Shown here piece after piece: positions 2,210 to 6,421 of a stretch of DNA of 22,932 bases; within the stretch, counting starts at the first letter, position 1, and every line of letters begins with the position of its first letter. This stretch comes from Candidatus Micrarchaeota archaeon (lineage in GTDB: Archaea > Micrarchaeota > Micrarchaeia > Norongarragalinales > SBBD01). Location of the stretch: contig JBDRLB010000065.1 of NCBI GenBank assembly GCA_043813365.1, positions 1-22,932 of the forward strand, read 5' to 3'. The position numbers were made by a program, and so were the translations under genes. A model generated the notes under the pieces. The model did not search any database. It was not told where the DNA came from and saw only the letters and a list, made by a program, of their open reading frames with translations.

Positions 2210-2565
2210 ATGATCAGCCTTACCTTCGAACCCTTCGCATTCAGCTGCACCAGTTTTTCTATTGACATCGTTTCCGCTCCTCCTTTCTTTAATTTTACAA
2301 GGGCGGATTTCGAGAAACGGAATGCTGCAATTTTTGCCTTCTTCCGCATCTCCCCGATCCCGAGCACCTTCCCCGGGACCAATGCGGTTTCGCCGTCATT
2401 CAGCACCCGTCCCAAACGGTTGAGGTTGACCTCTACCCTCTGCCTCGTGGGCTTCCGCAAGTAAAATGCGGCCCTTCCCCAGATTGCCGCATCGTCCTTC
2501 CTCCCTGCCTTCTCCAAAGTGACCAAGAGCTTCCTCAGACTCTGAATTTCGGTTCCGTGCTTCAT
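2206..2565 (-). CDS. rpl18e: 50S ribosomal protein eL18
   Basis: EVNLNRL...VPGKVLGIG...AAFRFSKSA; start moved to ATG 2565 (MKHGTE, GAGGT upstream) because the longer ORF-track version reads through tRNA-Leu. Confidence 0.96.
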   Translation of the reverse strand: MKHGTEIQSLRKLLVTLEKAGRKDDAAIWGRAAFYLRKPTRQRVEVNLNRLGRVLNDGETALVPGKVLGIGEMRKKAKIAAFRFSKSALVKLKKGGAETMSIEKLVQLNAKGSKVRLII

Positions 2566-2600
2566 CTTCAAAACCTCAAATATGAATGCAGGGGCTGGGA

Positions 2601-2703
2601 CACTCATGCCAAGCCCCGCAACAAAAAATATCGGCCGAAGGCCGCAAAAATGTTTTCTTTGGCGGCGCCACCGCCTTTCTTTCCAAAAAGAAAGGCAAGG
2701 CAA
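2601..2703 (-). other. tRNA-Leu T-loop intron at 59/60 (103 nt)
   Basis: Strict BHB: CUGGG/CCCAG, central UUCA/UGAG, bulges AAU and UGU, intron helix UGCC/GGCA. Confidence 0.9.
2635..2696 (+). repeat. Small palindromic element, copy 1 (inside tRNA-Leu T-loop intron)
   Basis: CCGAAGGC..TTTTCTTTGG..GCCTTTCTTT-CCAA-AAAGAAAGGC. Confidence 0.7.
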
Positions 2704-2750
2704 TTTGAACCCAGGCATCCCTACGGAACAGAGACCTCAACCCTGCGCAT

Positions 2751-2803
2751 TTGGCCAAAAATGCTCGAGCCGTTCTGTCCAAAAGGTCGGCTTTTCATTT
2801 TTT
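2751..2803 (-). other. tRNA-Leu D-loop intron (53 nt)
   Basis: Central helix GGUC/GGCC, two AAA segments, intron helix AAAAAUG/CAUUUUU (relaxed BHB). Confidence 0.85.
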
Positions 2804-3058
2804 TTGACCAGGCTCTGCCACCCCTGCAATAAACTTCAACGCCTCCTCGTCCGTCAATCCCTCGAAAGCGATTTCCTTCTCCCGAGATTTCGCGCCCTTG
2901 AGCAGGAATACTTCCCTTCCGGAGAGCTTTTCCAGCTCCGAAAGGAGTTCCCTGTTTGCCCTCCCGCCATTTGCGGGGCTTTTCAGGCGCACGATTATTT
3001 TCCCTTCCTTCATTCCGATCCCAAAACGCTTCGCGTTCGGGACCGCCTTTAATTCCAT
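2795..3058 (-). CDS. DUF167 / YggU family protein
   Basis: VPNAKR...VRLKSPANGGRANRELL...LLKGAKSREKEI; start overlaps the rpoD stop (TAATG). Confidence 0.9.
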   Translation of the reverse strand: MELKAVPNAKRFGIGMKEGKIIVRLKSPANGGRANRELLSELEKLSGREVFLLKGAKSREKEIAFEGLTDEEALKFIAGVAEPGQKK

Positions 3059-3639
3059 TACTTTATTTCCTTCGATTTGCCGAGCTCAACTGCCTTTTCC
3101 TGCAGCAACTTGAGCCCGCGCAGAAGCTGCTCCTCGGCCGAGAGGTTGTTGAAGCTCTCGACGAAGAACGTGAATTCCGGGCTCTTCTTTTCCGGATCAT
3201 AATTGTAGGATGCGATCGCGCTCTGGAATTTTGCATGCTGCTTGGATGTGCCCTTCGTTACCTTCGCCTCAAGCCGCAATTTCTGGTTCGGCCCCAGCTT
3301 CATTATCGGGATGTTGTCGTTGTAAACCTTAATGCGCTCGTCCGAGCTCTTCAGGTCACGCGAATAGACCATGCAAGGGCCTTCGGCATTGAGAGAGAGC
3401 GTAATTTCAACCTTGTCCGCATAATTCTCCTCGTAAGTAAGGGGCATCATGCCCAGCCTGTTCGCGACGTAGTCGTTGAACATCGCGGAATTGTTCTCGT
3501 AGAAGTCAACATCATCTATTGCGAAAGCCTCAAGGTCGGAAATTATGGAGCGCCTGAGCGCATTCATCATTGCAACTGATGCGCCCTTCACCTTAATTTC
3601 CAGTTTCTGCCTCTCGTTTTTCAGGATGCTGAACTCCAT
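3058..3639 (-). CDS. rpoD: DNA-directed RNA polymerase subunit D (Rpo3), short form
   Basis: NALRRSII...NNSAMFNDYVANRLGMMPL...HAKFQ...FFVESF. Confidence 0.96.
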   Translation of the reverse strand: MEFSILKNERQKLEIKVKGASVAMMNALRRSIISDLEAFAIDDVDFYENNSAMFNDYVANRLGMMPLTYEENYADKVEITLSLNAEGPCMVYSRDLKSSDERIKVYNDNIPIMKLGPNQKLRLEAKVTKGTSKQHAKFQSAIASYNYDPEKKSPEFTFFVESFNNLSAEEQLLRGLKLLQEKAVELGKSKEIK

Positions 3640-5875: not shown

Positions 5876-6421
5876 TCAAGCAATTCCTTCCAAAACTTTC
5901 TCCGCCCTCCTAGAAATCGCAAATTCCGCCTGTGCCGGAGTGAGAAGGAACAATGTTGACGCAATCGCAATGATTTCCTGCGGGGATTTCAGTTCAAATG
6001 CATTGGTTGCCCTAGTTGTAAAAACAAATTTCGCATCCAGCTTCAAGCACCTTTTAATGAAGTTCCTTGTTTGGCTGATCAATTTGGCGCGGTAGATGAA
6101 ATTGGCTTTCAGGAATTCAGATATGGGGATTTCGAAAACGGTTTCCCTCTCAACCGCTTCCCTTATCAGCCCCTCATCCCTGTAGAAATCCCTTGCAGAT
6201 AGCGGGTTGCACAGCAGCGGCTTTTTCTGCTTGATGCAATTCCTCAAAAGTTCCGGATCCGTTGACTGGATGGAAATCAGCTCCCTCGAATTGGCTGCAT
6301 TCAAATCCTTTCCGCTTCTTAGGTCAATTATTTTTGCGGTAAGAACACGCGAAAAACCCAGCTTCAACGCTTCCGCTTCCAATCCCTTGTTTTGGAGGTT
6401 GAGGTCGATGTACTCACTCAT
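5876..6421 (-). CDS. rnp3: RNase P protein component Rpp30
   Basis: FEIPISEFL...FVFTTRATNAFELKSPQEIIA matches the Rpp30 C-terminal motif; near rpl15e. Confidence 0.85.
   Translation of the reverse strand: MSEYIDLNLQNKGLEAEALKLGFSRVLTAKIIDLRSGKDLNAANSRELISIQSTDPELLRNCIKQKKPLLCNPLSARDFYRDEGLIREAVERETVFEIPISEFLKANFIYRAKLISQTRNFIKRCLKLDAKFVFTTRATNAFELKSPQEIIAIASTLFLLTPAQAEFAISRRAEKVLEGIA

Follow-up and report, generated by a model that had tools for sequence, protein, structure and literature searches.

In the 22,932-nt window analysed here, contig JBDRLB010000065.1:1-22,932 (assembly GCA_043813365.1) of a Candidatus Micrarchaeota archaeon (Norongarragalinales, DPANN), a protein gene of the DUF167/YggU family has no stop codon ahead of the tRNA gene behind it. 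Its reading frame overlaps this gene, tRNA-Leu(GAG), by 33 nt and is closed by a UGA in the D-loop intron of the tRNA. We consider it probable (roughly 70%) that the overlap is an incidental loss or drift of the stop codon at a nearly spacer-less junction between the two genes and not a control device, because among related genomes it is recurrent yet unconserved, the genus of the window is itself mixed, and four different parts of the tRNA gene provide the stop. The locus lies on the minus strand, in a cluster of classical archaeal information-processing genes (Pfam and open reading frame (ORF) list of the window) arranged as S13-S4-S11-RpoD-[DUF167]-tRNALeu-L18e-L13-S9. The features of the junction are listed below (BHB, bulge-helix-bulge splicing motif).

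3639-3058, minus strand: RNA polymerase subunit D (RpoD, Rpb3-like), the gene upstream of DUF167 (Pfam PF01000, PF01193)
3058-2795, minus strand: DUF167/YggU-family coding sequence, 87 amino acids (ORF list, Pfam PF02594)
2827-2587, minus strand: tRNA-Leu(GAG), a 241-nt gene interrupted by two BHB introns (ARAGORN after intron removal)
2827-2804, minus strand: tRNA exon 1 (tRNA positions 1-21), read as AGVAEPGQ in the DUF167 frame
2803-2751, minus strand: intron 1, 53 nt, in the D-loop at 21/22 (pair listing)
2750-2704, minus strand: tRNA exon 2 (positions 22-59), holding the anticodon GAG and an in-frame TAG at 2723-2721
2703-2601, minus strand: intron 2, 103 nt, in the T-loop at 59/60 (pair listing)
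2600-2587, minus strand: tRNA exon 3 (positions 60-73; spliced cloverleaf)

The ATG of the DUF167 gene overlaps the stop of the RpoD gene (TAATG), and the last ten codons together with the stop lie inside the tRNA gene. Codon 78 starts exactly at G1 of the tRNA (2827), the first six bases of intron 1 encode KK, and the frame ends at TGA 2797-2795, 30 nt past G1. The first-pass annotation, made from the sequence alone, had already described the missing stop, the coincidence of codon 78 with G1, the exon-encoded AGVAEPGQ and the KK and TGA supplied by the intron, and all of these are confirmed by the sequence and the ORF list. Its further statement, that the frame would continue for nine codons to a TAG in the variable arm if intron 1 were excised, holds in silico (TAG 2723-2721). 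Beyond what had been noted there, the tRNA carries a second intron, at T-loop position 59/60, and the overlap is spread over the whole order.

The tRNA gene is invisible to standard searches: the unspliced window yielded no tRNA with ARAGORN, run with and without the intron option, and no tRNA or other RNA family with Rfam, either at the gathering threshold or even at E ≤ 10. It was detected once both of its introns had been removed. When the boundaries of both introns were varied over a grid, ARAGORN recognised tRNA-Leu(gag) in 1106 of 3600 variants, and with the boundaries that the BHB motifs define the product is a canonical cloverleaf of 85 nt that has A73 and lacks an encoded CCA. ARAGORN finds 23 tRNAs in the genome, 14 of them with introns, and no other Leu(GAG) tRNA among them. 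The BHB of intron 1 consists of a 4-bp H helix (2809-2806/2756-2753), two AAA bulges (2805-2803 and 2752-2750) and a 7-bp h' helix (2802-2796/2763-2757), in which the U and the G of the DUF167 TGA are paired. Its outer helix h is unformed (a U-U mismatch followed by isolated pairs), which makes it a relaxed BHB motif; the boundary may slide within the A runs, leaving the product unchanged. The helices are kept in all seven sequences of family f1, with one compensatory pair. Intron 2 has a strict hBHBh' motif, made up of the T stem, an H helix (2709-2706/2606-2603), the bulges AAU and UGU, and an h' helix (2702-2699/2610-2607). The genome encodes a single splicing endonuclease frame, of 392 amino acids, which PF01974 matches twice (75.6 and 27.5 bits); it appears compatible with the broad-specificity three-unit epsilon2 type of ARMAN Micrarchaeota, as characterised in passages of PMC4033280.

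The DUF167 ORF is real. It matches Pfam DUF167 (PF02594, UPF0235) with 44.6 bits against a curated cut-off of 30.9 bits, over residues 2-64 and profile positions 5-74 of 76, and its sequence agrees with the alignment at all 9 invariant and 5 near-invariant columns. Its AlphaFold2 model has a predicted local distance difference test score (pLDDT) of 84.6 and is matched by Foldseek to 9vyx (E 3.9e-8, template modelling score 0.79), 1n91 (E 5e-4) and 1jrm (E 6e-3). A profile search of PDB sequences gave 9unt (2e-15) and 1jrm (9e-14), and the fold corresponds to the solved structures of PF1765, E. coli YggU and MTH637. Residues 70-81 form the last helix of the model, and residues 83-87 have pLDDT below 50. 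In an alignment of 11 in-operon DUF167 proteins, conservation ends near residue 77 and is followed by 5-12 residues of unrelated sequence. The decapeptide encoded by the tRNA gene thus replaces a freely variable segment; the tail is probably unstructured and would be dispensable.

To establish where the DUF167 stop falls in relatives, 40 genomes of the order were queried with the DUF167 protein, of which 32 gave a match. Four of the 32 (G013, G016, G018 and G022) have a shorter DUF167 at another site and were excluded, and the counts rest on the 28 genomes with the order S11-RpoD-DUF167-tRNALeu-L18e-L13. The stop lies inside the tRNA gene in nine of these genomes and 4-50 nt before G1 in the other 19. 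The nine overlaps belong to four families (three in f1, one each in f6 and f7, four in f11) and are closed by the D-loop intron in five cases, by an anticodon-loop UGA in two, and by U8-A9-G10 and a variable-arm UAG in one each. At least seven stop positions are used among them (+7, +24, +30, +33, +35, +51 and +126 relative to G1), the full range over the 28 genomes being -50 to +126. The individual cases, with G000 denoting the genome of the window, are as follows.

G000, G002: stop at +30, UGA in the D-loop intron
G009: stop at +24, UAA at the intron start
G035: stop at +33, UAG in the intron
G033: stop at +126, UGA at the far end of a 109-nt intron
G027: stop at +7, U8-A9-G10
G014, G031: stop at +35, UGA formed by U33-G34-A35 of the anticodon loop
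G039: stop at +51 (54-base overlap), variable-arm UAG, without a D-loop intron

Four of the nine overlapping genomes lack the D-loop intron altogether, and one of them, G039, directly encodes the kind of reading that is predicted for the spliced form of the window's gene. The genus of the window is divided: G000 and G002 overlap, G001, G003 and G004 stop 23-38 nt earlier, and G005 has no DUF167. G002, at 60% identity, shares the junction of the window, its ...AGVAEPGQKK tail and its TGA. In all six genomes of the genus intron 1 contains the string AAAAAAUGA(A/G)AAGCC, which includes the DUF167 TGA, and the UGA serves as a stop in only two of them. Since it is present in six of six, even in G005, where DUF167 is missing, the UGA is conserved as a part of the intron and not as a stop. 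Whether the overlap and its intron stop are conserved had been put forward as a check by the first-pass annotation; the overlap proved labile, whereas the intron UGA is kept throughout the genus. The same annotation had set against its own proposal the case that relatives stop before G1 and the overlap is a one-off: most relatives do stop there, yet the overlap is recurrent.

The DUF167 gene itself comes and goes. Eight genomes of the order gave no match, and five of these were inspected (G005, G010, G011, G020 and G030). No DUF167 is found between RpoD and the tRNA in G005, G010, G020 and G030 (loci L080, L082, L083 and L084), where the gap is 2-85 nt; G011 (L081) retains a 33-residue remnant, and a broken copy is present in G007. 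In G005, 9 nt separate the RpoD stop from a tRNA-Leu whose introns are nearly identical to those of the window, and on the G010 contig a separate DUF167 match stands at a distance of about 100 kb. A profile search over 81 genomes of the class found DUF167 in 54; among the 30 loci returned, 16 come from other orders, and in none of these 16 is the gene followed by a tRNA-Leu or embedded in the ribosomal cluster. In five well-assembled genomes picked from other families (G040, G044, G047, G054 and G077), RpoD is followed after 1, 7, 8, 4 and 50 nt, respectively, by a tRNA with a Leu 5' exon, and then by L18e and L13; ARAGORN calls Leu(GAG) in three of the five. Because this junction is tight in all five genomes, the RpoD-tRNA-Leu arrangement is older than the insertion of DUF167, and the tRNA appears always to have had coding sequence at the position of a promoter. 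From the distribution, which is unrooted, we infer that DUF167 reached its position by insertion and that its absence within the order is due to loss.

The spacing of the genes also points to transcription of the tRNA together with its neighbours: S11 and RpoD are separated by 9 nt, RpoD and DUF167 by -1, DUF167 and the tRNA by -33, and the tRNA and the L18e ATG by 21 nt. As the first-pass annotation had remarked of the missing TATA-like box, no A/T-rich box is present at -45 to -10 before G1 in the window, where only GTTTATT at -7 to -1 was found. In 27 loci none of the scanned promoter hexamers, a small set of A/T-rich patterns, lies nearer to G1 than -58 (two hits, at -58 and -61); A/T-rich runs in some spacers were left unscored. 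A sigma-70 promoter scan was discarded as not applicable to archaea. The co-transcription proposed in the same annotation is thus very probable, judged by gene spacing and the lack of a promoter-like box.

The history that we favour would then run as follows. In the Micrarchaeia, tRNA-Leu(GAG) stands directly behind rpoD, presumably transcribed with the cluster, and in the order of the window a DUF167 gene is placed between them, again abutting the tRNA. Once the native stop was lost, the frame would enter the tRNA gene and continue to the next stop, which here would be the pre-existing UGA of the D-loop intron. A ribosome trailing the polymerase would end DUF167 at this UGA, 30 nt past G1, while the 3' acceptor strand (2594-2588) would be made about 230 nt later, owing to the two introns, and the first round of translation would be undisturbed. 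Only then could the RNase P substrate and the two BHB motifs fold, and from that point the folding of the acceptor stem, D-arm and BHB would compete with ribosomes on nucleotides 1-33. RNase P, the splicing endonuclease and a ligase would then release tRNA-Leu, leaving a DUF167 mRNA cut at G1 as a non-stop message, on which stalled ribosomes would be split by Pelota; a transcript spliced but not cleaved would yield an alternative DUF167 C-terminus. The ten residues encoded by the tRNA gene would be tolerated as a side effect and do nothing by themselves. The genome encodes the processing machinery for these steps: RNase P RNA (103.5 bits), Pop5, Rpp30, Pelota (230 bits) and the 392-amino-acid endonuclease.

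Several considerations weigh against stop-codon drift. Co-transcription, the order of events and the fate of the non-stop message are all things that we infer from sequence; a look for RNA runs covering 2400-3400 returned none. Nine overlaps in 28 genomes, four of six in one family, are many for a deleterious state, and the state could be favoured. The direction of change, loss or gain of the stop, would have to be read without a rooted tree, and the promoter scan was limited to a few A/T-rich hexamers in a group whose archaeal promoters are uncharacterised.

The first-pass annotation had gone further and proposed that tRNA maturation is coupled to DUF167 expression. In its full form such coupling would mean that, owing to the overlap, any one transcript could serve for DUF167 synthesis or for tRNA-Leu maturation but not for both, a state that selection would maintain or create again and again: RNase P would turn the DUF167 mRNA into a non-stop message, so that less DUF167 is made than of the other proteins of the operon, and ribosomes that terminate would melt the BHB and delay splicing. 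The recurrence of the overlap in nine of 28 genomes, four families and at least seven stop positions could be taken in its favour, as could the pairing of the stop's U and G in the h' helix and the presence of RNase P and Pelota in the genome; moreover, a conflict between a ribosome on nucleotides 1-33 and the folding of the acceptor and D-arms would be unavoidable. We nevertheless find selected coupling unlikely. An attenuator-like device should keep the stop inside the RNA wherever both genes are kept, but the stop is inside in 9 and outside in 19 of 28 genomes, and the genus is split into two with overlap, three without and one lacking the gene. The position and the kind of stop vary, and with four of nine overlaps devoid of a D-loop intron there is no intron mechanism common to all; the intron and its UGA persist in G005 without DUF167, and DUF167 has been lost repeatedly. 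A regulatory role is therefore unsupported, because the overlap exists with and without the intron and in a gene that is itself repeatedly lost. What stands of the proposal is its logic: RNase P cleavage would leave a non-stop mRNA, the RNase P RNA and proteins being encoded, and splicing would alter the DUF167 C-terminus on an uncleaved transcript, as the in silico excision indicates.

That the missing stop is instead an early sign of decay in a DUF167 gene whose protein is unneeded we regard as very unlikely. DUF167 is indeed gone from the operon in G005, G010, G020 and G030, and G011 has just a remnant of it and G007 a broken copy, but the ORF of the window is intact, with its conserved columns, above-cut-off Pfam match and confident fold, and G002 keeps the same reading at 60% identity, which indicates long survival under constraint. 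It is still less probable that transcription of the tRNA begins within the DUF167 coding sequence, which would make the mRNA and the tRNA mostly separate molecules and confine any effect of the overlap on RNA to read-through transcripts: archaeal promoters within coding regions are known and our promoter search was crude, yet no A/T-rich box precedes G1 at -45 to -10, the 27 loci offer no listed hexamer nearer than -58, and outside the order the tRNA follows the RpoD stop by 1-8 nt in four of five genomes, which puts coding sequence where a promoter would be. A sequencing or assembly error concealing a stop just before 2827 has, in our estimate, the slightest chance of all. The genome is a metagenome bin (78 contigs, 88.6% completeness, 1.34 Mb), and no near-identical public contig spans 2795-2830, the four best DNA runs having given fragments and contigs of relatives. 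Such an error is nonetheless unlikely because G002, an independent genome of the genus, shares the junction, the ...AGVAEPGQKK end and the TGA, and because eight other genomes overlap; besides, the frame is conserved to the last codon before G1. Entry of ORFs into tRNAs is not a general habit of this genome: among the other 23 ARAGORN tRNAs no case is supported by a protein family, and three apparent ones were dismissed, one being a 79-residue ORF mostly within the tRNA and two depending on doubtful tRNA calls with introns above 1 kb.

Stop-codon drift at this junction can be set beside several known systems. In mitochondria, tRNAs punctuate the transcript: RNase P and RNase Z excise them and thereby make the mRNA ends, genes abut or overlap the tRNAs, and incomplete stops are completed by polyadenylation. 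Here, too, a protein gene abuts or overlaps a tRNA; in contrast to mitochondria, the sole complete stop codon lies beyond the RNase P site and would be lost on cleavage, and the host is an archaeon with BHB introns. The cbf5 gene of Crenarchaeota has a BHB intron in its mRNA, and its splicing is required for the protein. The window resembles it in having a BHB in a translated RNA, the removal of which would change the continuation of the frame, and differs in that its unspliced form is already a complete ORF and the spliced mRNA form is hypothetical. The multi-intron tRNAs and the epsilon2 endonuclease of ARMAN were reportedly described by Fujishima in 2011. Passages of two papers attribute to ARMAN-1 and ARMAN-2, which are also Micrarchaeota, multi-intron tRNAs and a three-unit epsilon2 splicing endonuclease (PMC4033280, PMC5829648). 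The window's organism shares with them the phylum, non-canonical introns (21/22 and 59/60), strict and relaxed BHB motifs and a long endonuclease with apparently repeated catalytic units (passages of PMC4033280), whereas no protein gene ending in such an intron is described in the passages of these papers (PMC4033280, PMC5829648). A further comparison is with guide small RNA (sRNA) genes that lie on the same strand directly behind an ORF, where, according to parts of PMC6009581, the C box supplies the ORF stop in 23 cases and the likelihood of conserved overlap is more than 40-fold lower for tRNA genes than for sRNA genes. As in those sRNA-ORF overlaps, an RNA gene behind an ORF, probably co-transcribed, gives the stop, the arrangement varies by species and the 3' end of the ORF is tolerant; unlike in them, the RNA is an essential tRNA and the stop lies in an intron that is removed from it. 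In a literature search at the level of listings, abstracts and passages, neither a protein gene ending in an archaeal tRNA intron nor a function for DUF167/UPF0235 was found described.

The D-loop introns have a conserved feature of their own. Introns at the same site throughout the order (the window and L002-L028) are 53-139 nt long and otherwise unalignable, and share a core in the order RUGAA, a closing stem that shows compensatory changes, CCUCA(A/C), a GC-rich hairpin that may be missing, a (C)ACAGAAC-like motif and the 3' strand of the stem. CCUCA[AC] occurs in 12 of 18 introns against 0.7 expected and is complementary to UUGAGG, the anticodon loop of the tRNA itself; the window has the decayed form CCUUUU. 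By eye, the second motif (ACAGA, ACAAG or AUAGG) fits anticodon-stem positions 40-44 in several lineages, but the mean duplex energy with the anticodon arm was -8.2 kcal/mol for cognate and -7.7 kcal/mol for non-cognate pairs, a difference that is not significant, and the own arm ranked first in 6 of 18. The core was inspected against known guide RNAs, for which the C/D consensus, as in the guide RNA of the tRNA-Trp intron, is a C box RUGAUGA and a D box CUGA that form a kink turn, with guides that stop 5 nt from the D or D' box, and likewise against the H/ACA rules. A C/D box guide RNA or kink turn in intron 1 was rejected: Rfam gave no match at E ≤ 10, RUGAA with NCGA/NGGA, by inspection, forms no standard kink turn in either orientation, and a D' box after the CCUCAA motif is lacking. 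An H/ACA-like pocket in the CCUCAA...ACAGAAC loop was likewise discarded on inspection, its strand order being reversed and no ACA box following the stem.

Taking junction and core together, one may conceive that the processing of tRNA-Leu makes the 3' end of the DUF167 mRNA and that in about a third of the genomes (stop in the D-loop intron, in U8-A9-G10, in the anticodon-loop UGA or in the variable-arm UAG) DUF167 translation and maturation of the sole tRNA-Leu(GAG) compete for the same nucleotides on each transcript, so that the amount of DUF167, of the tRNA or of both is measurably altered. Apart from this, the intron core, which includes a complement of the anticodon loop, might act in cis on the pre-tRNA, in folding, modification or quality control, a kind of action undescribed for archaeal introns. 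We offer this joint reading only as speculation and think it rather improbable; that either the conflict or the conserved core has a real function seems a minority prospect of similar size.

Even as an incidental state, the junction is a clean natural case in which one stretch of RNA has to close a reading frame and also provide the 5' portion of an essential tRNA. The relatives provide a comparison series of the same gene pair with the stop before the tRNA, in the mature tRNA or in the intron, which could offer a way to study in what sequence archaea carry out translation, RNase P cleavage and BHB splicing, and what they do with non-stop messages. There is also a consequence for annotation: standard finders miss the tRNA, and gene callers will truncate DUF167, extend L18e over the tRNA or report an overlap with nothing. 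The reach is modest, since the comparison argues against dedicated regulation and the organisms are uncultured.

The remaining genes of the cluster were located as follows.

7514-7089, minus strand: L15e (Pfam/ORF)
6421-5876, minus strand: RNase P p30 (Pfam/ORF)
5491-4808, minus strand: S13 (Pfam/ORF)
4793-4218, minus strand: S4 (Pfam/ORF)
4221-3649, minus strand: S11 (Pfam/ORF)
2565-2206, minus strand: L18e (Pfam; start from tblastn alignments of relatives)
2209-1805, minus strand: L13 (Pfam/ORF)
1792-1361, minus strand: S9 (Pfam/ORF)
1019-804, minus strand: RpoN (Pfam/ORF)

The gene of RNase P p30 (5876-6421), two genes upstream of S13 and in the same orientation, thus belongs to the cluster that also contains the tRNA-Leu which RNase P must cut out. 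The probable start of L18e is the ATG at 2565, with a GAGG at 2577-2574, 8 nt upstream, and the tblastn alignments of relatives begin there. The longest L18e ORF would start at an ATG at 2718, in the T arm of the tRNA, and cross intron 2 and exon 3. Residues 92-96 of this long ORF are where its Pfam matches set in, and callers blind to the tRNA may annotate a false N-terminal extension of 51 residues.

Further observations concern the tRNA introns. At 2623-2644 (minus strand), intron 2 has a 5-bp GC hairpin followed by AUAUUUUUUG, which looks terminator-like in a simple scan; taken as an A/T-rich box, it lies about 60 nt ahead of the L18e start, and it is not conserved in the intron of G002. 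In G019 (L050, about 1745-1860) the tRNA-Leu has an apparent extra insertion immediately after the acceptor stem, where GCAGGGGU is followed by about 70 nt and then by GCAGAGCUUGGUCAA; this would be a third intron position. ARAGORN also called, in G000, a tRNA-Leu(CAG) with a 1253-nt intron (C2:28854-30202) and a tRNA-Pro(UGG) with a 2296-nt intron (C75:9488-11872), which are either false joins or tRNA genes with very large inserts.

Behind the DUF167 genes of other orders (L049, L059, L068 and L052-L070) there are same-strand ORFs; in three loci these ORFs start, judged by eye, like archaeal DnaG, and in about nine others they carry what we take by eye to be a Toprim-like VVEGKxD motif.

The first 52 or so nucleotides of intron 2 (2652-2703) are a genomic repeat, a long A/U-G/C hairpin with a GC clamp, and copies 88-93% identical to it occur at no fewer than six further sites of G000:

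C28:3106-3157, repeat copy
C47:15990-16037, repeat copy
C11:5228-5276, repeat copy
C62:22982-23035, repeat copy
C31:1507-1556, repeat copy
C42:33920-33948, repeat copy

The copy on C28 lies within the ARAGORN-called intron of a tRNA-Arg(CCT), others lie beside or inside a tRNA-Leu(TAA) on C11, and the repeat is also present on contigs of other metagenomes, in different contexts.

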